A stretch of DNA of 64,000 nucleotides. Source: an uncultured Acidobacteriota bacterium (GTDB lineage: Bacteria; Acidobacteriota; Vicinamibacteria; Vicinamibacterales; UBA8438). Position 1 is the first letter of the stretch. Each line of letters starts with the position of its first letter. The stretch spans positions 128,001 through 192,000 of the forward strand of contig CAJWLU010000003.1 of NCBI GenBank assembly GCA_913043225.1, in the 5' to 3' direction. Below the pieces are notes generated by a model. That model worked only from the letters and a program-made list of their open reading frames with translations. It searched no databases and was not told where the DNA came from. Shown here one piece after another: positions 5,401-64,000 of the stretch. A program made the translations under genes and the position numbers.

Positions 5401-5430
5401 CGCGACTGGGGCGTGTCGAAGAGGATGGTC

Positions 5431-6861
5431 ATGACCAAGCTGGGCGTCCGGTGGGGGTCGACGGTCGCCTTGTGGCTGGCGGTTTTCGCACCGGCGGCCG
5501 CTGCGGCGCCTGCCGACGGACCTTTGCTGACCGCCGTGCGAGGGGGCGACGCCGAACAGGTGCGCGCGCTGCTCGCCATCGGAGCCGATCCGGACGCGTC
5601 CGCCTCAGATGGTGGAACGGCCCTCCTATGGGCCGCTGAGGCAGGTGACGATACGCTAACCAGGATGTTGCTCGAAGCCGGGGCGGCCGCGGATCGCGCC
5701 AACCGCTTCGGGGCGACGCCTCTGCTCGTGGCCGCGACCGGCGGGCATGCCGGCGTTCTGGAACTGCTGCTCACGGCGGGTGCCGACCCCGACCTGGCGA
5801 TGCCGGAAGGAGAGACCGCACTCATGCGTGCCGCTCGGTCCGGCCGAGCCGATGCCGTGGGAGCGTTGATCGACCATGGCGCGGAGATCGACGTTCGGGA
5901 ACAGTGGCGTGGGCAAACGGCTCTCATGTGGGCGGCGGTGGAAGGTAGCACGACGGTGGCGCGTACTCTACTGGCCGCCGGAGCCGACGCCCACGTACGA
6001 TCCAGAGGAGGGTTCACACCGCTGCTTTTTGCGGTGCGACACAATCAGCTCGAGACGCTGGATGCGTTGGTCGAGGGTGGGGCCGACGTGGACGATGCCC
6101 TGCCAAGTGGGCTGAGCGCGCTGTGTCTCGCGACGCTCAACGCCCACTATGATCTTGGGGTCTGGCTGCTCGAACACGGGGCCGACCCGAATGCCGACGG
6201 CCAAGGCTGGACGGCGCTCCATCAGCTGGTTTGGGCCCGTCGTCCCAACCTCGGTTACAACAACCCGGCGCCGAACCCGACCGGTCGGGTGTCGGACCTC
6301 GAGTTTGTCGAGGCGCTGGTCGCTCATGGTGCCAACGTCAACTCGCTCGAGACAAAGGAGCCGCGCGGCGCGGACGGATCCGGCTCACCGGTCGGCTATC
6401 GGAACGTGCTGAACCGTGTCGGGGCCACGCCGTTCCTGCTGGCTGCCAAGGCGGCAGACGTCGAGTTGATGCATCGTCTCATCGAACTCGGAGCCGACCC
6501 ACTGCTTCCGAACGAGGACGGCACCACCCCGCTGATGGTTGCGGCTGGGGTCGGTATTTGGGCCGTGGGTGAGAGTCCGGGGACCAATGAAGAGGCGCTC
6601 AAGGCCGTGAAGCTCATGCTGGAGCTTGGTGATAGCCCGACCACCGTCGATGGTAACGGGGACACGGCCCTGCACGGCGCAGTCATTCGAGGCTCTGAGC
6701 CGCTAGTGCGCTTCCTGCTGGAACTTGGCGCAGACCTGGAAGCGGAGAACGAGAAAGGTTGGACCCCACTTACCATTGCCAAGGGGGTCTTCTACTCCAA
6801 TACCGGTAAGCGGTGGCCAGAGATGGAGCGGTTGCTCATCGAGCTTGGGGCGACGAAGTAG
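5431..6861 (+). CDS. Secreted ankyrin-repeat protein
   Basis: Signal peptide plus many G-T-[AP]-L-x-x-A ankyrin repeats. An alternative start is GTG 5413. Confidence 0.9.
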   Translation: MTKLGVRWGSTVALWLAVFAPAAAAAPADGPLLTAVRGGDAEQVRALLAIGADPDASASDGGTALLWAAEAGDDTLTRMLLEAGAAADRANRFGATPLLVAATGGHAGVLELLLTAGADPDLAMPEGETALMRAARSGRADAVGALIDHGAEIDVREQWRGQTALMWAAVEGSTTVARTLLAAGADAHVRSRGGFTPLLFAVRHNQLETLDALVEGGADVDDALPSGLSALCLATLNAHYDLGVWLLEHGADPNADGQGWTALHQLVWARRPNLGYNNPAPNPTGRVSDLEFVEALVAHGANVNSLETKEPRGADGSGSPVGYRNVLNRVGATPFLLAAKAADVELMHRLIELGADPLLPNEDGTTPLMVAAGVGIWAVGESPGTNEEALKAVKLMLELGDSPTTVDGNGDTALHGAVIRGSEPLVRFLLELGADLEAENEKGWTPLTIAKGVFYSNTGKRWPEMERLLIELGATK

Positions 6862-6874
6862 GGCGAAACAGGGC

Positions 6875-6918
6875 GTACACCACAACGGCCGGGCAGAAGC
6901 CCGGCCGTTGTGGTGTAC
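6875..6918. terminator. Perfect 20-bp hairpin between convergent genes (likely bidirectional terminator)
   Basis: GTACACCACAACGGCCGGGC-agaa-GCCCGGCCGTTGTGGTGTAC lies between stops at 6861 (+) and 6935 (-). There is no long U-tract. Confidence 0.7.
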
Positions 6919-6934
6919 CGGTGGGCGTCGAGGC

Positions 6935-7288
6935 TCAGTCCGCGAGCTCGATCGATGACACGCTCAGCAGTTTTTCACCGCCGGCCTCGCTGGTTTCGCC
7001 CGTCACCCTCACCTGCTTAGCCATCATCTTGGCTAGCTTGTCCGGGTTCTCCGACGCCCAGTCTCCCGTGATCTTGTAGAGGCCAGCGGCGGTCTGGATG
7101 CCGATGGGGTCGCCGTTCTTGGCGCAGCGGACCATGCAGGCCACGTGCTCTGCGCTCGGCTCCGTCCCGCCCATTGCGGAGCAGCCAGCCTCCACGAGCC
7201 GGCCGGTGATAATTTCCTCTGCCGCGGCAGATCCTGCCAGAATGAAAGTCGCTGCGGCAACGAGGACGACGAGAGCAAATTTCTTCAT
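6935..7288 (-). CDS. Small secreted protein with a C...HxxCxxxC-G-P motif
   Basis: MKKFALVVLVAAA signal peptide; EAGC and HVACMVRCAKNGDP; beta-rich tail. Start ATG 7288. Confidence 0.75.
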   Translation of the reverse strand: MKKFALVVLVAAATFILAGSAAAEEIITGRLVEAGCSAMGGTEPSAEHVACMVRCAKNGDPIGIQTAAGLYKITGDWASENPDKLAKMMAKQVRVTGETSEAGGEKLLSVSSIELAD

Positions 7289-7403
7289 CCGCCAAGTCTG
7301 CCGGCCCGGGTGGCCGGGTGTCAAGACGTCGGCTTTCCCGCGTCTGGCAACCACTCGGGGTAGAATGCTGCCAAATCAACGTTCTCAGACCCCAGGAGTC
7401 ATC

Positions 7404-8372
7404 ATGGCCCGTCTAGACCGTCTCGTTCCGTTGCTCGCCATCGGTCTCGTTTTCACGCTTGGTCCTTCGATGCTTGCGGGCGCTCAGATTTTGGACGGGC
7501 CAGACCCGGCGCAGATGGAAGATGCCCCTGATCTCGGTTACAGGGCGGTGCCTCACGGGCTCGAGATTCCCGCCGGAATGGAGATGGGTGCCCCTTCGAG
7601 CGTGGTCTGGACCTCTCGCGACCATTTGATCGTATTCAACCGGGGACCAAATCCGCTCATGGCGTTCGAGGCCGACGGCAAGTTCATCCGTGCGTGGGGA
7701 CAGGGGGAGTATGAGCGGCCGCACGGCATGCGCCTGGATCCTGAAGGAAACATCTGGACGACGGATGTCAACGGTCACACTGTTCGGAAGATGAACCTGG
7801 ACGGTGAGGTGCTGCTCACGATTGGCACCCACGGGCAGCCGGGCGACGCCGAGGACGGACTGCTCAACGAGCCGACGGATCTCACCATCAACGCCGCTGG
7901 TGACATCTTCGTGTTGGTAGGCCACGGTCGAGGCGAGCCGCGTCTCGTCAAGTTCGACAAACACGGCACGCTGGTGACTTCATGGGGCGGTCCTGGCACC
8001 GAGCCAGGAAAGTTTGATACTCCTCATTCGATCGTGGTTGACGCCGCCGGCCTGCTCTACGTGGCCGATCGACAAAACCGCCGTATCCAGATCTTCGACG
8101 AGGACGGCAAGTATCTAAGGGAATGGGCCTACAAAGGTCTACCCTGCGGTATCCACCTGCAGGAGGATGGACAGATGTGGCTAGCCAGTGGATTCGCCGG
8201 GGAGATTCTCACCCTCGACAAGAACGGTAAGGCCACCGCGGCTACCGGGGAGCCCGGCAAGGGCCTCGGTGAATTTGGGGAGGCGCACTACATGACCGTG
8301 GCGCCCAACGGTGACATCTGGGTGGCCGATACCGTCAAGCCCGACCTCCACAAGTTCGTCAAGCGCCAGTAG
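7404..8372 (+). CDS. Secreted NHL-repeat beta-propeller (peptidyl-alpha-hydroxyglycine alpha-amidating lyase-like)
   Basis: Signal peptide; PHGMRLD, FDTPHSIVVD, YVADRQNRRIQIFD NHL repeats; GGAG RBS upstream of ATG 7404. Confidence 0.85.
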   Translation: MARLDRLVPLLAIGLVFTLGPSMLAGAQILDGPDPAQMEDAPDLGYRAVPHGLEIPAGMEMGAPSSVVWTSRDHLIVFNRGPNPLMAFEADGKFIRAWGQGEYERPHGMRLDPEGNIWTTDVNGHTVRKMNLDGEVLLTIGTHGQPGDAEDGLLNEPTDLTINAAGDIFVLVGHGRGEPRLVKFDKHGTLVTSWGGPGTEPGKFDTPHSIVVDAAGLLYVADRQNRRIQIFDEDGKYLREWAYKGLPCGIHLQEDGQMWLASGFAGEILTLDKNGKATAATGEPGKGLGEFGEAHYMTVAPNGDIWVADTVKPDLHKFVKRQ

Positions 8373-57885: not shown

Positions 57886-58529
57886 GCCTCAGTCTCGCGT
57901 TCGTCGGCACGGAGGTCTGAGAGGTAGTACCAGAATCCGCCGCCCGCCAGCGCTCCGACGGTGAGGACCTTGAGCAAGAACCTGGTGGTCAGCTCACCCC
58001 CCAGCAGGTTGAAGACCAGCGTGGTGACATCGCCGATCAGCACCGCCGCCGCCACGAACAGCGTGAGATAGGTCAGCCACCGCCGCACCTTCGATGCCCG
58101 CTTCGCTGGGTCGGCCGCCAGTTCCTTGCCTACCAGCTTGGAGAGTCCGACGAAGAGTGGGCCGGCGACGATCAGGAGAGATACGGACCAGCGGATTTGT
58201 TCGCGCATGACCTGGACGGGTCGCGTGTAGCTGAGGTCTGGGAACGCGTAGTTGATCAGTTCGAAGAGGAGTTGGCCCAGGCTGAACGCACTCAGATAGA
58301 GCGCCGTGAACAGCAGGAGGTAAACGAAGGCGTCCCTGGCTGACAGGTACGGCTGCGGGCGGGGGACTGGGAGCGGAAATTCCACGTCAGCGTAGCAGGT
58401 AAGGGCTCCGCGAATGTCCGCCCCATCCCAGCCGGCGTTTTTGAGCGCCGTCCGCAGGCGAGATCGATCTACACCGCGGGCCAGACCGTCCCTGACGAAT
58501 CGCCGAAGTTCTTCGGGGGCTGCCATCAC
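57882..58529 (-). CDS. DUF5671-type membrane protein
   Basis: ARDAFVYLLLF, RRWLTYLTLFVAA, LLGGELTTRFLLK. Confidence 0.82.
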   Translation of the reverse strand: MMAAPEELRRFVRDGLARGVDRSRLRTALKNAGWDGADIRGALTCYADVEFPLPVPRPQPYLSARDAFVYLLLFTALYLSAFSLGQLLFELINYAFPDLSYTRPVQVMREQIRWSVSLLIVAGPLFVGLSKLVGKELAADPAKRASKVRRWLTYLTLFVAAAVLIGDVTTLVFNLLGGELTTRFLLKVLTVGALAGGGFWYYLSDLRADERETEA

Positions 58530-58535
58530 TCCTCC

Positions 58536-58997
58536 TCAGGTATCCAGTCTGTGTGTGAGCTCGCGTATCGTACCGACCGTGCGCTCTAGGTCGGCCTCGG
58601 GCAGACCGTCAGCGATTCGGGCGGCCCAGTCGTGACCGACGTCGGTCAGCGCGGCTTCGATCCGTTCACCTTTCCGAGTCAAGACGAGCAAGGGTGAACG
58701 AACATGGTCGGGGTTGGGGTCGTAACGCACGAGGCCGTCCTTTGCGAGCAGGTCTGCGACCCGCTGCACGCTCTGGCGCGACATACCCATGCGCCGGGCG
58801 ATCTGCGGAACGGTCCTGGTTTCCTCGGCCACTGCACCGATGACCTGCCACCGCGCCTGCGTCTGGCCGAGCGGCGCGGTCAATGCGGCGCCGTGGCGCA
58901 GGAGCGCGCCGTTTAACCGAAAGATCTCGAGTACCAGCTGTCGGAGGGTGTCTGCGCTGGCGGGTCGAGTGGCCGGGGTGTACTGGTCTGAACCCAT
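58536..58997 (-). CDS. MarR family transcriptional regulator
   Basis: ARWQVIGA, TVPQIARRMGMSRQSVQRVAD, NPDHVRSPL.LT.KG. Confidence 0.93.
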   Translation of the reverse strand: MGSDQYTPATRPASADTLRQLVLEIFRLNGALLRHGAALTAPLGQTQARWQVIGAVAEETRTVPQIARRMGMSRQSVQRVADLLAKDGLVRYDPNPDHVRSPLLVLTRKGERIEAALTDVGHDWAARIADGLPEADLERTVGTIRELTHRLDT

Positions 58998-59034
58998 ATG
59001 ACACTATTGAACCATATAGACATTATTCTGTCAA
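58998..59034 (-). promoter_or_regulatory. MarR promoter with an overlapping operator
   Basis: Minus-strand TTGACA(59034-59029)-17 nt-TTCAAT(59011-59006). Palindrome GACA-ttattc-TGTC at 59019-59032 and a second GACA half-site at 59000. The start codon is only about 8 nt after the -10. Confidence 0.65.
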
Positions 59035-59064
59035 TATGAATAGCCGTGCTACTTTGCCGCATTT

Positions 59065-59230
59065 GCCGGCGACCCGAGGCGCTGGTCGGGTTATGACTGG
59101 ACGGGAAGGACCGGTGGCTGAGGTCGCAACTCACTACCTCCGCGCGGTCCTTGGGGGAGGCACTCGTGTGGCTACGAGCCCCATCCAAGTCATGGAAGAT
59201 CCCGACCAGACGCCTCGAGTGACGCCCGCC
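59065..59230 (+). ncRNA. Multi-branched structured RNA, IS110 non-coding/bridge-RNA-like, with no adjacent recombinase
   Basis: Long closing helix, two inner stem-loop domains and an upstream extended -10 TGcTACTTT (59047-59055). The IS110 resemblance is from recall only. Confidence 0.55.
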
Positions 59231-59268
59231 CGCAGGGCCGGAGAGCCTGCTCCAACCCCGCGGTCCTG

Positions 59269-59502
59269 CTAGTGGGGAGTCGTGTGCTGTATATCGACTT
59301 CTGAATCGAGTGTCCGCTCTTCGTCTTCGACTCCGAACTCAACATAGGCGTCGCCAAGCAGACGCACCAGCTCCCGTAGTTCTCGCTTGGTGAGCTTCAA
59401 CACTAGGGGACCCAGATCTACGTGGATGCAGCCGTGTTGACACTGCGACACGGCCCAGTGCCGCCGTTTACGGGGTTGCTCTTCTGACGTTTCCTGTTTC
59501 AT
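59269..59502 (-). CDS. Small Cys/His-containing protein downstream of the TonB receptor
   Basis: GGAG RBS; SQCQHGCIHVDLGPLVLKLTKRELRELV. Confidence 0.72.
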   Translation of the reverse strand: MKQETSEEQPRKRRHWAVSQCQHGCIHVDLGPLVLKLTKRELRELVRLLGDAYVEFGVEDEERTLDSEVDIQHTTPH

Positions 59503-59514
59503 GATGTCTCCGTA

Positions 59515-61791
59515 CTACCAATCAAGGGCTAGAGACGTGATGACGCTGCGTCCCGGGCTCGAATAGCGGTCGATTACTGGGTCGTTCGTGCCTCGGCCGC
59601 GGACGTTCCACCACTCAAAATAGGTTTCATCGGCTAGGTTCAGTAGTCCGATTCGGAAGGTCACCGCGTCGGCCGGCCGGATCGAGGTGACGAAGTCAAC
59701 CACCTGGTACCCGTCCGGCGCGAATTGTCCGTCACCGGCATCCAAAGCAGTCTGTCCTTCGGTGATCCGTACCGACAGCTCGCTTGTCCACCAGCCGTCT
59801 GGGTCGATGTACTGGAGCCCAATGACGCCTTCGTCCGGCGTAATCGAACCGAGGGGTGTGTCGGTGTCGCCGGACACGTCGGTCCCGGTTATGGCGGCCC
59901 AGCTAGCGCGGAGGCGGACACGGTTGGTGAGATACGTGTCGGCCCTCACTTCGACTCCCCCGATCTCTACCTCTGACAGGTTCTGGCTCTGGAACTCCAG
60001 GAGGAATGTGGCGGGGTTGAACCCGACCGCGGTTAGCTCGATGAAGTCATCGTAGCGATTCGAGAAGGCGGTGACATCCAGGCTTGTCCGGCCAAATGCG
60101 GCCCGCAGCCCAACTTCAATGTTGTCGCTCGTCTCGGCATTCAACCCCGCGTTCGGGAGCGTGGTGTATCCGCCCGCTAGGTTGGTGAAGCCGGTGTTGA
60201 TCGCGCTGTAGGGAGGTGCGCGGAAACCGCCGGCATACTGGGCGTGCGCGGTTAGGTCGTCCGTGATCAAGACCGTGGCGCCAATCTTCGGCGACATCGC
60301 GTCGGCCGAGAAATCAGCTGGCACCGGATTCAGTCCGGCAAGGTAAACCGCGTCCTCCTGGTTGGCGTCGAGTGAGTACCGGTCGTAGCGGACTCCCGGG
60401 ACGATGGTCAGACGGTCTACGCGGAGCTCGGCTTGCACATAGACGCCGGTCTCATCAACGTCGCTCTCTGGGAAATACTTCGCCGGGAAGATGAGGCTGG
60501 TCGGCACCGGCGCACCGGTGATGATGTTCGTTTCGCTGCGATCACGCAGCACATCGAACGCATCACGTGTGAAGCTGGCGCCGAAGGTCAGCATCAGCCC
60601 GTTCTCGGTACCCCCGACCCAGTGTTGTCCTTGCCCTGAGGCGCCGAAGCCCCGCTGCTCGAAATTGACGGTGCCGGTCCTCGAGGACAGCGTGGGCGGA
60701 CCGAACGCGACGATTGATCGGGACTCGTCTACGACTTGGGAGGTGTCGCCCCCCTGGCCGTAGACCCGCCAGGTGAGCACGTCTAGTCCACGCTGCGGTG
60801 TCAGGACGTGATCGAGCGAGATTCGCCAGCGCTTCTGAGTGTCGAGGGCCTGCGCGCTCGTCGTGCTGAACGCGACCGGACCGTAGAAGGTTGTGCCCTG
60901 AAGCGAGTACGCCGTCGTGTTGATCTGGGTGTCGAACACCTCGATCGCGCTTCGGAAGATGTTTCCTGGAGACGCAGTGAAAACCATCTTGCCGAGCGCC
61001 TGCAGGCCTTCGCGGTCTTGAGGGTTTGGTGCGGTGCGGGTGACGTCCAGTGTTTCGATTGTGCCCTGGTTCTTGGTCTCGTTTCCCCGGCTGTAACTGG
61101 TAAACAGCGACCCCTGCACGCTCTCGTTGCCTAGGGCGAACGCGAAGTTGCCGCTGGTATCGTCAGAGCGCCCGTCCCAGGTGGTCTTGACGCCGAGGTA
61201 GCGCTTCTGGTCCAGCAAGTAGTCGGCAGGGTCTTTCGTGAACAAGGACACGACACCGCCTAGGGCGTCGCTGCCGTAGAGGGCCGAGTTGGCGCTCCGG
61301 ACGATCTCGACCGACTTGAGCGTGTCCACGTCGAGGCCTGCCTGATGGATGCTGAACGGCCCGAAGTCGAACTGCTCGGAGGTCTGTACCCCATCGACCT
61401 GGGTCATGACACGGTTACCACCCACGCCACGAATGTTGAAGCCGTTCAAGCCGAGTCGGGTTACGTCGTTCTCGACATAGACGCCAGGTTCGAACTTGAC
61501 GAGGTCGGAGAAGCTCTCGACCATCCGCTCCGCGATGGTTTCGCTATCGATGACCGACACCACGCCCGGGGTCTCCCTCAGCGATGACGGCGAAAGCGTG
61601 GCCGTGACCGTTATCTCATCGAGATACGTCGTCGGCTCGTCCTCGGTCGACTGATTGGTGCTGGCACTAGTCGACGTTTGCGGCTGAGCCAGCACCTCGG
61701 CGGGCAGGAGTGCCACCGTTAGCGAGAAGACGAGGACGGCTCCTGCCCCCTGGGGACCGCGTCCGCGTCGGAGCTGTTGTACGAGCTGCAT
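59515..61791 (-). CDS. TonB-dependent heme/hemoglobin family receptor
   Basis: DEITVTAT TonB box, FNIRGVGGNRV, SALYGSDALGGVV, GFRAPP...PNAGLNAETS, terminal W. Confidence 0.9.
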   Translation of the reverse strand: MQLVQQLRRGRGPQGAGAVLVFSLTVALLPAEVLAQPQTSTSASTNQSTEDEPTTYLDEITVTATLSPSSLRETPGVVSVIDSETIAERMVESFSDLVKFEPGVYVENDVTRLGLNGFNIRGVGGNRVMTQVDGVQTSEQFDFGPFSIHQAGLDVDTLKSVEIVRSANSALYGSDALGGVVSLFTKDPADYLLDQKRYLGVKTTWDGRSDDTSGNFAFALGNESVQGSLFTSYSRGNETKNQGTIETLDVTRTAPNPQDREGLQALGKMVFTASPGNIFRSAIEVFDTQINTTAYSLQGTTFYGPVAFSTTSAQALDTQKRWRISLDHVLTPQRGLDVLTWRVYGQGGDTSQVVDESRSIVAFGPPTLSSRTGTVNFEQRGFGASGQGQHWVGGTENGLMLTFGASFTRDAFDVLRDRSETNIITGAPVPTSLIFPAKYFPESDVDETGVYVQAELRVDRLTIVPGVRYDRYSLDANQEDAVYLAGLNPVPADFSADAMSPKIGATVLITDDLTAHAQYAGGFRAPPYSAINTGFTNLAGGYTTLPNAGLNAETSDNIEVGLRAAFGRTSLDVTAFSNRYDDFIELTAVGFNPATFLLEFQSQNLSEVEIGGVEVRADTYLTNRVRLRASWAAITGTDVSGDTDTPLGSITPDEGVIGLQYIDPDGWWTSELSVRITEGQTALDAGDGQFAPDGYQVVDFVTSIRPADAVTFRIGLLNLADETYFEWWNVRGRGTNDPVIDRYSSPGRSVITSLALDW

Positions 61792-61902
61792 GGCTATACT
61801 CCAAATGGGTTCCGGTCCGCCCCATGCGGTACCGGCGCTCACTTGGGCGCTCCCGTTCGGCTCCTACACCATGGGCGGGGGCGCCCACCTCTGATCCAAC
61901 GT

Positions 61903-63216
61903 TCAGTTCAGTGCCTTGTCGTCCGAGCTGACTCGGATAAGTTCGGTCCCGGCCCGGATCAGGATCGCATCGTCAACCGCCGCGATCGCTGTGACGGGTG
62001 CGCTGACCGACAAGTGGTTAGTAGCCACAACCTGGGCCGTTTTCGCCGATGCCGCCAGTATCTCGGTCGTACCGTCCTCACCAAAGAAGAAGACGTGGTC
62101 TCGGTGACCGAGCGGAGTAGCCCACGTGGACGCGGAAAGCCGATGGGTCCACTGGACCTCGCCCGATTGTGGGTCCAGGCAGCGTGCCGCGCCCGCTGGG
62201 TTGATCCAATATATGCACTTGCCGTACGCGAACGGGGAGCCGAAGTTTGAACCGCTACCGGTCTTCCAGGCGACGGCCGTTTCGTCGAGTTTGCCGAGCC
62301 CGCCCCGTCGGATGGCAAGGTTTGCATCGACCGCCAGTCCTCCCACCACGACGAGCTCGTTCGTGACCGTTGGGGAGGGCACATGGTTGCCGCTCAGACC
62401 GGCGAAGTGCCAGCGGCGTTCGCCGGTGACGGCGTCGAAGCCTTCGATCTGTCCGGACGCGCTGACGACGATCTCATTGCCTTCGGGCGATAGCACTGGT
62501 GTGGTCCAGGCGACTCCGGCGTCCCGCTCGGTCCGCCATAGCGTGTCGCCAGTGGTTCGATCGACCGCGAGAAGATAGGAGTAGGTACGTCGAGTCAGAA
62601 GTACCACGACCGCACGGGGAGTCAGCAGCAAGGAGTTTCCGACCCCGTGATTACCTCCTACGGATCCATAGTCCTTGGTCAGATCACGTTGCCAATGCAC
62701 TGCACCGTCGTGGCCCAAGGCGATAAGGTCGCCGCTGGCGAAGAAGCTATAGATGCGGTCTTGGTCGACGACTGGAGTGGGCGCTGCTTTGGAGACGTAG
62801 TCATTGAACTCGTGTGGTTCGGAGGCATCGAAAGCCTGGCGCCACTGTTCGCTGCCGTCTTCCAGATTGAGCGCCGTGACCCACAGACGTTCTTTCATGG
62901 CGCCTTCAATCGAGGTGACGAACACTGAACTGTCCCAGATCACCGGGGAGGACTGCCCAAACCCCGGGGTGGTGACACGCCAGGCGACAGTCTGGTCGGA
63001 CCAGGTAAGTGGGAGTCGGGCGGCGTGGCTGACGTTGGTACCGTCGCCGCGGAAGCCCGGCCATCGCGTAGCGGCCTCGGAGGTCGCAAAAACGAAACCC
63101 GCGCGCCGAGTTTGGGCAGCATGGTCTGCCAGGAGGAGGAAGACCAAAGCCACGATACAGCCGCCCGCAGAGGGCAGTAGCCCTCCGAAGATCGGTGGAG
63201 GCGCTAGCGATCGCAC
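61903..63216 (-). CDS. PQQ-like beta-propeller (BamB-like) protein
   Basis: WPGFRG, GQSSPVIW, APTPVVD, and repeated TG...W blades. Confidence 0.85.
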   Translation of the reverse strand: MRSLAPPPIFGGLLPSAGGCIVALVFLLLADHAAQTRRAGFVFATSEAATRWPGFRGDGTNVSHAARLPLTWSDQTVAWRVTTPGFGQSSPVIWDSSVFVTSIEGAMKERLWVTALNLEDGSEQWRQAFDASEPHEFNDYVSKAAPTPVVDQDRIYSFFASGDLIALGHDGAVHWQRDLTKDYGSVGGNHGVGNSLLLTPRAVVVLLTRRTYSYLLAVDRTTGDTLWRTERDAGVAWTTPVLSPEGNEIVVSASGQIEGFDAVTGERRWHFAGLSGNHVPSPTVTNELVVVGGLAVDANLAIRRGGLGKLDETAVAWKTGSGSNFGSPFAYGKCIYWINPAGAARCLDPQSGEVQWTHRLSASTWATPLGHRDHVFFFGEDGTTEILAASAKTAQVVATNHLSVSAPVTAIAAVDDAILIRAGTELIRVSSDDKALN

Positions 63217-64000
63217 CGGCGCCCCCCTTTCAGGCTGACGCCGGCAAGGCTGGCGTCGCTGTCACAGCGGCTACGTTCGTCAGGCTGCCACCCCATGATC
63301 TGGCGCATCGCTGCCTCGCCTTGAGTGATTAAGTCACCGATCCAGCGAGCAAATAGCGGGTGGGGAGCGAAGCCAGCTCCGATCTGCACTCCGTCGAGGT
63401 CGCTGAGTTCGTACTGGGATGGGCCGGTCCCGGTCATCCGGGCTGGAATGGCCAGCACTGTCCGGCCGAGGGCTCGTTCGGCTTCAATGATGCCGTGGAT
63501 CTGGGCCTCGGCTTCCTCGCGGGCGTCGGGCCAGTCTTCTCGCCAGTTGGCCCAGTGGAATGCCGCGAAGTTCGGTTCGTGCTCCTGCATCTGCGAGGCG
63601 ATCGACTCAAGGTTCTCCAACCACGCCGCGTTTCCCTCGTCGCTGCCCGCACCGTGACCAAGGAGCAGCACGGCCTCCTGCGAGGGATTGTTAGAGAGGG
63701 CTCGGGCGCGCGCCGCGAGCGCCTCCGCAAATGCCGGGTGGTCTTCCAGGCCGCCAAGGGTGGCGAAGATCGCCGCAGAGCGCACCCGAGGGGGTGGTCC
63801 CATGCCCATGGACATGCCCGGTTCATCGCCGAGCCCCATCAGATACTCGATGCGGTCGAGAAATGACGCTGCTTGGGCGAAGACCCGAATGAGCACGATG
63901 GCCCGCGCACCGCGTTCTTCCAGGCGTGAGACGGCTCGACCGAGCACGACCGGGTCGGCCATCGAGAAGGCATATTCGACCAACCGGCTCTGGGTTAACT
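63204..64000 (-). CDS. CbiX/SirB-fold chelatase-like protein, 5'-truncated by the window edge
   Basis: YAFSMAD, LEDHPAFAEAL, VLLLGHG, REDWP. The frame stays open to the window end. Confidence 0.75.
   Translation of the reverse strand, partial: LTQSRLVEYAFSMADPVVLGRAVSRLEERGARAIVLIRVFAQAASFLDRIEYLMGLGDEPGMSMGMGPPPRVRSAAIFATLGGLEDHPAFAEALAARARALSNNPSQEAVLLLGHGAGSDEGNAAWLENLESIASQMQEHEPNFAAFHWANWREDWPDAREEAEAQIHGIIEAERALGRTVLAIPARMTGTGPSQYELSDLDGVQIGAGFAPHPLFARWIGDLITQGEAAMRQIMGWQPDERSRCDSDASLAGVSLKGGRRCDR

Follow-up and report, generated by a model that had tools for sequence, protein, structure and literature searches.

Hairpins at the ends of converging transcription units act as bidirectional terminators and as REP-type stabilisers. 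In bacteria, template switching at imperfect inverted repeats is among the known mechanisms of mutation, the quasipalindrome-associated form being described for E. coli (PMC7202029). According to PMC11208160, the left end of the element IS621 encodes a bridge RNA of about 177 nt that folds into three successive stem-loops.

The locus presented here lies in the window, i.e., the whole 64,000-nucleotide stretch of DNA that was analysed, between a marR-family gene and a putative haem-receptor operon. An earlier, sequence-only reading regarded it as a stand-alone guide RNA of the IS110 type without its recombinase. In comparison with the IS110/IS621 bridge RNA (PMC11208160), the locus presents a similar length, an upstream promoter-like site and two inner stem-loops; yet its predicted folds have, on either strand, one closing helix of approximately 38 bp instead of three successive stem-loops. 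Further differences are that it has no recombinase, does not lie in the end of an element, is present in a single copy, and matches the ends of 30 IS110 loci neither in sequence nor in structure. 6S RNA (RF00013) has a similar size and paired ends, but gives no match at the hairpin locus. Bidirectional terminators and REP-type stabilisers share with it a very stable hairpin between facing units and RNA that appears to end at the base of the stem, although the hairpin has no U-tract, is far longer with its inner hairpins, and is single copy; a termination role is putative. As in the E. coli template-switching products, an inverted near-copy stands beside its source; here the fold-back copy starts at a distance of 13 nt from a rearrangement joint in a dead gene and completes a long imperfect palindrome, the event itself is one that we infer, and the copy, of 41-50 nt with five small gaps, lies approximately 75 nt from its template. 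The hairpin is a lineage-specific rearrangement scar, and it is neither a mobile-element guide RNA nor a member of a conserved RNA family. The features of the locus are presented in Table 1.

Table 1. Features of the hairpin locus and its surroundings, in window coordinates.
Feature	Coordinates	Strand	Basis
marR-family regulator, 153 aa	58536..58997	-	Pfam MarR_2, E 1.3e-11; protein identity 84% to L081, 97% to L080
AT-rich promoter/operator gap, marR to hairpin	58998..59062		consensus scan, sequence
Promoter-like site	58998-59026	+	consensus scan, 1 site vs 0.2 expected
Extended -10 TGCTACTTT	59047-59055	+	sequence
Left arm of closing helix; older, common to sister species	59065..59105		inverted-repeat alignment, L081 match
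Inner hairpin A, in both lineages, inner sequence differing	59106..59152		folding
Six S58 (DmpA-type) pseudogene codons, S L G E A L	59148..59165	+	tblastn with L081 fragment against window
Small inner hairpin B, spanning the joint	59163..59178		consensus structure of model R1, pair list
Joint; sister similarity stops at 59166, then 13 nt	59167..59179		collinearity blocks
Right arm, inverted near-copy of left arm, this lineage only	59180..59229		inverted-repeat and duplex tests
Stretch under short RNA-library contigs	59063..59231	unassigned	X2, X3, X4 contigs
77 aa ORF, final gene of putative haem-receptor operon	59269..59502	-	ORF list; homologues in relatives
Start of 10.3 kb block between S58 pseudogene pieces	59167..64000		collinearity, L124 1167-11466

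The hairpin structure is confirmed. All helices listed by the sequence-only reading are present (59075-81 with 59211-17, 59082-90 with 59201-09, 59093-98 with 59188-93, 59106-13 with 59145-52, and the CTCGT/ACGAG hairpin), and the closing helix, which encloses the two small hairpins A and B, is longer than it had noted, pairing 59065-59105 with 59180-59229. Its description of a stand-alone, strongly structured element directly 3' of a promoter-like site also holds: the extended -10 is present at 59047-55, and the ORF list contains no transposase downstream. The hexamer GTGGCT, which it had found in both inner domains, does occur at 59114 and at 59168; given that one copy is altered by a G>T change at 59116 in the 97%-identical relative L080 and in the RNA contigs, this shared hexamer is not conserved.

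Alignment of 59065-59105 with the reverse complement of 59180-59229 yields 38 matches, 3 mismatches and 9 gap positions. The resulting score of 34 compares with 15.8 +/- 2.5 in shuffled sequences, none of which (0 of 3000) scored as high, and it is the highest of the inverted repeats among 580 tiles of the window, the runners-up scoring 29 and 28. The duplex energy of the two arms is -63.9, against -45.5 +/- 4.0 in shuffles (0 of 500 as low). When the 184 nt from 59047 to 59230 are folded as a whole, the plus strand gives -88.2 kcal/mol (z -3.5) and the minus strand -97.8 kcal/mol (z -5.07); for 59055-59238, z is -3.16 and -5.47, respectively. A fold of this strength is not unique in the GC-rich window, since the element ranks 9th by energy in a local-fold scan of its whole length and four further stretches reach z values of -4.9 to -6.7. 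The strongest of all relative to shuffles is 6851-7028 on the minus strand (-100 kcal/mol, z -6.7, GC 0.64), which sits in the gap between the ORFs 5413-6861 (+) and 7098-8372 (+) and has no Rfam match at the gathering score.

Relatives were compared at the level of genomes and of metagenome loci. The genome that holds the window (G000) is 96% complete and that of the sister species (G001) 77% complete. Locus L080 is a metagenome relative with 97% identity, L081 is a complete metagenome locus of the sister type, and L124 is the locus of the window's own genome, which runs beyond the window end. A DNA search of 60 relatives returned one collinear match, in G001, with 72% identity and restricted to window 59065-59166, where the contig ends. 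The other DNA matches in these relatives, in G013, G046 and G055, span 35-55 nt (37-58 query bases) with E from 7e-4 to 2.7e-3 and correspond to a different part of the query each; a covariance model of the element (R1, with 179 positions and 59 pairs) had no match in the family of G013. Scanning metagenome contigs with the MarR protein yielded 33 loci, 17 of which have a MarR identity of at least 67%. Among these 17, L080 has the element in full (97% identity) and L081 matches in part, while the other 15 present nothing and gave no match to R1 either (0 of 15). Lastly, a pattern scan of 185,579 species genomes returned 53 stretches, of which only the sister contig L071 (the same DNA as L023) aligns further by BLAST; the other 52, with no BLAST alignment beyond the pattern, were rejected as chance.

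Between 59055 and 59238, the window and L080 differ at six positions, all of them within 59062-59132, in the left 78 nt, and none in the right 106 nt (59133-59238). At 59085, the change turns the pair into A-C on the plus strand but retains pairing as G-U on the minus strand, and relative to the window the L080 fold is weaker by 6.2 kcal/mol (plus) and 1.7 kcal/mol (minus).

The interior of the hairpin is related to a dead gene of the host chromosome. In L081, the order is pgk, tpiA, secG, tRNA-Leu, an ORF on the opposite strand, 138 nt, and marR. Residues 47-211 of this ORF match Pfam Peptidase_S58 at profile positions 126-263, and a full-length S58 protein of 350 aa from a relative (G017) shares 71% identity with the ORF over residues 148-349. 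Given that the ORF aligns to these residues only, it represents an S58 gene minus its first 147 codons or so. The Peptidase_S58 match in L081 begins with S L G E A L, and the same six codons are present at window 59148-59165, where they include the conserved run located between the two domains of the sequence-only reading. A search for the missing N-terminal half of the S58 gene in G000 and G001 found paralogues only. In the sister species, the pseudogene continues unbroken to tRNA-Leu. The truncated fragment of L081 (2215-2925, minus strand of the locus) has an open frame of 236 codons that reaches a GTG within the promoter region of marR, and no stop interrupts its 190 S58-like codons; either its truncation is very recent or the fragment is still expressed as a chimera.

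Collinearity with the sister locus is interrupted within this pseudogene. L081 3481-3016 corresponds to window 58483-58946 (marR) and L081 2874-2769 to window 59065-59166 (72%); L081 2388-3 then corresponds to L124 11467-13852, 10.3 kb further on and past the window end. The lineage of the window has 10,300 bases in place of 380 bases of S58 fragment in the sister. This block, which extends 5466 bases past the window end, spans from the putative haem-uptake operon to rpsD and contains the 77 aa ORF and a 593 aa protein together with, by Pfam, a TonB-dependent receptor, a PQQ-type propeller, JmjC_2, DUF4920, a flavodoxin, ribosomal protein S4 and DUF6787. The presence of rpsD marks it as moved chromosomal DNA and not a mobile island. 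Beyond it are the S58 3' relic, tRNA-Leu, secG, tpiA and pgk. The relic (G000:C3:197467-197640; L124 11467-11640) is located beside tRNA-Leu, 5.5 kb past the window end, and is decayed, its two frames showing 48-50% identity; it represents the remaining half of the pseudogene found in the hairpin. Window 59167-59268 is not significantly similar to the S58 sequence of L081 (score 18.0, shuffles 19.5 +/- 2.9), and the idea that the right part is diverged S58 sequence was rejected, as this score is not above shuffles.

The history of the block may involve more than one insertion or event, given that a more distant locus, L082, has DUF4920-type and cupin/JmjC-type genes (families judged from translations) directly upstream of marR, in the order and orientation of the block. 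Searches of G001 (77% complete) with the JmjC protein, the haem receptor and 3 kb of DNA containing rpsD gave no orthologous match to the block. The order of events is drawn from a single comparison, between the only two independent lineages, i.e., the window with L080 and L081 with G001. The 77 aa ORF of the block has no Pfam family; it contains Cys and His residues and has relatives in 11 of 60 related genomes (best identity 45%), which indicates a real small gene. At the far end of the block, L124 11418-11442 is a perfect 12+12 palindrome located upstream of a 101 aa ORF.

Similarity to the sister ends 13 nt before the right arm, and L081 contains no inverted copy of the left arm. The left-arm inverted-repeat score in L081 is 12 (shuffles 15.1 +/- 2.5), the duplex energy is -45.8 (shuffles -50.9 +/- 3.3), and 301 nt of L081 fold with z of -0.1 and +0.8. 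An alignment of L081 fitted to the model kept 24 of 37 outer pairs, but it was rejected: given that the unfitted tests do no better than shuffles, these pairs are fitting noise. With the left arm in the older, shared part and the right arm absent in the sister, the closing helix arose after the lineages split. As far as the sequence comparison indicates, it would have formed when the block was joined or shortly thereafter. The sequence-only reading had noted that the pairing is intact beside heavily eroded genes. The pairing is indeed intact, but this is better explained by youth than by selection. Its suggestion of a new class of noncoding RNA does not agree with a closing helix that is confined to this lineage and has half of its length in recently joined DNA.

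Hairpin A is the part with a longer history. In the window it folds with -20.6 kcal/mol (z -2.5) on the plus strand and -22.6 kcal/mol (z -3.85) on the minus strand, and in L081 (2783-2833) with -23.4 and -25.4 kcal/mol (z -3.7 and -4.0). The pair 59111-59147 is C-G in the window and U-A in L081, i.e., one pair is changed on both sides between the two lineages. The element as a whole falls short of the compensatory change expected of a conserved noncoding RNA, since hairpin A alone is shared and the closing helix is absent in the sister. This older part could be under selection. Given that its 3' strand enters the first surviving S58 codons, hairpin A may also derive from an earlier fold-back of this kind, at the joint where the S58 gene was truncated.

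Parts of the stretch are held by nine RNA runs, of which the contigs of four (X1-X4) were compared and X5-X9 were left out. The hairpin is covered by separate short contigs in X2 (59063-59217, depth 5.9), X3 (59068-59217, depth 5.3) and X4 (59068-59231, depth 24.2, against 8.8 for the marR contig of the same run); the three runs represent two samples, X3 and X4 sharing one, of one metatranscriptome study. No contig covers 58987-59062 or 59232-59332. In X1, which belongs to another study, marR and part of the 77 aa ORF are covered and no hairpin contig exists, although an uncovered part proves nothing. The contigs carry the variants of the L080 type at 59116, 59125 and 59132, and they start 8-13 nt after the TACTTT hexamer of the extended -10. 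Contigs of this kind show presence only, not strand, level or true ends, and DNA can be carried over into the libraries.

Cover this discrete, flanked by gaps, speaks for an RNA whose ends lie at the helix base. As the contigs cover exactly the hairpin, the transcript that the sequence-only reading had predicted probably exists; the hairpin is probably expressed, and a discrete hairpin RNA probably persists. The cover fits a plus-strand transcript from the extended -10 and the trimmed 3' end of the minus-strand operon equally well. The G-U pair at 59085 and the smaller energy loss of L080 on the minus strand are weak hints that the latter is the RNA strand. A role as the 5' leader of marR was rejected, with no contig joining the two and marR promoter-like hexamers lying between them.

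Rfam 15 gave no match at the gathering score over the whole window. Around the element, three weak matches at E up to 10 (mir-1910, HOTAIRM1_3 and chrB-b) present 11.7-15 bits against thresholds of 36.5-70, and these identities were ruled out with scores so far under the thresholds. A hit to a known family such as 6S RNA or a riboswitch, which the sequence-only reading had named as counting against its proposal, was not obtained from Rfam, and the true 6S RNA of the genome is located elsewhere (G000:C12:12719-12910, 71.3 bits). An IS110-type bridge or seek RNA that lost its recombinase, or that serves one in trans, would be consistent with a size near the 177 nt given for the IS621 bridge RNA in PMC11208160, with two inner stem-loops and with the promoter-like site upstream. 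However, DEDD_Tnp_IS110 (PF01548) and Transposase_20 (PF02371) had no match in the genome of the window (96% complete) and IS110 domains had none in that of the sister, while such domains are widespread across family and order, with matches in 35 of 60 relatives (all among G002-G060) and up to 39 per genome; neither genome of this genus has any. When R1 was applied to 30 loci around IS110 genes of relatives, nothing credible was found: the sole match below E 0.1, in L168 (17.8 bits), consists of the GC-rich outer stem alone, with 122 model positions deleted. The architecture also differs, and the hairpin is a composite of pseudogene and joined block. The IS110 reading is hence close to refuted, and we assign it next to no probability. 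Among the checks that the sequence-only reading had proposed, the search for homologues beside IS110 genes and the count of copies and recombinases in the genome yielded nothing credible at the 30 genes, one copy, and no recombinase domain.

Another of its proposals, a non-autonomous element, fares hardly better. A miniature mobile element of the MITE or REPIN-like kind would account for a unit of approximately 165 nt with terminal inverted repeats of 41-50 nt, yet many copies would be expected of such repeats and G000 contains one: in addition to the full match, 21 others have at most 47 query bases and E of at least 1.34. R1 found nothing at E up to 0.01 in 103 other genomes of the family, and no match to the element exists in the plasmid and phage collections. 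An insertion would bring both arms at once, but the sister has the left arm without the right. Moreover, the element is not bounded as a mobile element would be, given that its flanks and its interior, made of host pseudogene codons, are collinear with the sister chromosome. A miniature element is thus very improbable. The two readings in which the hairpin is not mobile differ in how they take the RNA cover. That of a selected small RNA of approximately 169 nt, transcribed on the plus strand from the extended -10 by the MarR operator, closed by its own terminal helix, and either trans-acting or an antisense shield for the haem operon, agrees with contigs that begin at 59063-59068, 8-13 nt after TACTTT, and with a depth in X4 above that of marR (24.2 against 8.8), which fits a dedicated promoter; both ends are paired, a trait of many stable small RNAs, and hairpin A is retained in the sister species. 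Nevertheless, neither the -10 motif nor the closing helix is conserved in the sister, the L080 change at 59085 costs more on the plus strand (A-C, 6.2 kcal/mol) than on the minus strand (G-U, 1.7 kcal/mol), no homologue is present at the 30 IS110 loci, in the 103 family genomes or at the 15 marR loci, and the contigs show neither strand nor true ends. We consider such an RNA unlikely. A pure DNA scar with no RNA life, its contigs being carried-over DNA or noise, is quite unlikely as well. It draws on the possibility of DNA in RNA libraries, whose contigs indicate presence only, and on all three covering runs being from one study; carried-over DNA should, however, give even cover, and in three runs of two samples marR and the hairpin are covered while the 76 nt between them and 100 nt beyond are not.

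Hence, the reading we consider probable is that of a young, lineage-specific composite located on a rearrangement joint, made by a fold-back copy, in which the hairpin would act as a transcript barrier or a stable end. The simplest origin would be that the left arm served as the template for an inverted copy, now the right arm, in the course of repair or replication at a break; judging from the comparison of two lineages, the event would be of the fold-back or template-switch repair type. Template switching at imperfect inverted repeats is the bacterial mechanism treated in PMC7202029. The helix of approximately 38 bp would then stand between converging units, i.e., the marR-divergent promoter on the plus strand and the putatively iron-regulated haem operon on the minus strand. 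Transcripts from either side may be halted at the helix or trimmed back to it, and the nuclease-resistant hairpin would remain as the discrete RNA of about 165-169 nt found in the RNA libraries. A barrier or a nuclease-resistant end for transcripts from either side is the likely role. The hairpin does not resemble an intrinsic (Rho-independent) terminator: a terminator scan of 58800-59600 yielded no terminator-like site, and no U-tract or T-run follows the helix on either strand.

What the composite reading removes is a false lead, as the apparent orphan IS110 guide RNA is a rearrangement scar, and it illustrates that intact pairing beside eroded genes can signal youth instead of selection. 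It also provides a dated example of a DNA-repair accident that would have placed a hairpin, long, stable and apparently expressed, between two units under regulation (by MarR and, putatively, by Fur). From such hairpins, new small RNAs or transcript barriers may arise. The reach is modest, this being an anecdote from one uncultured marine bacterium. A bolder variant, which we hold to be a long shot, is that a small RNA has been caught at birth: the fold-back would have closed a pseudogene remnant into an RNA of approximately 169 nt, driven by an orphaned MarR-controlled promoter and already in use. If this were true, the newborn RNA would, for instance, shield the converging, putatively iron-regulated haem-uptake operon from antisense transcription, or act in trans.

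Two minor observations concern the sequence around the joint. On the plus strand, 59166-59219 is an ORF of 17 codons with a GTG start 5 bases past a GGAGG that stems from the S58 relic codons; it is identical in L080 and is probably due to chance. In addition, an imperfect direct repeat of 31 nt, 59140-59170 and 59256-59286, flanks the right arm, with one copy overlapping the stop codon of the 77 aa ORF. Its copies match at 22 of 31 bases, a marginal value equalled by 4 of 200 shuffles, and the repeat may represent joining microhomology or chance.
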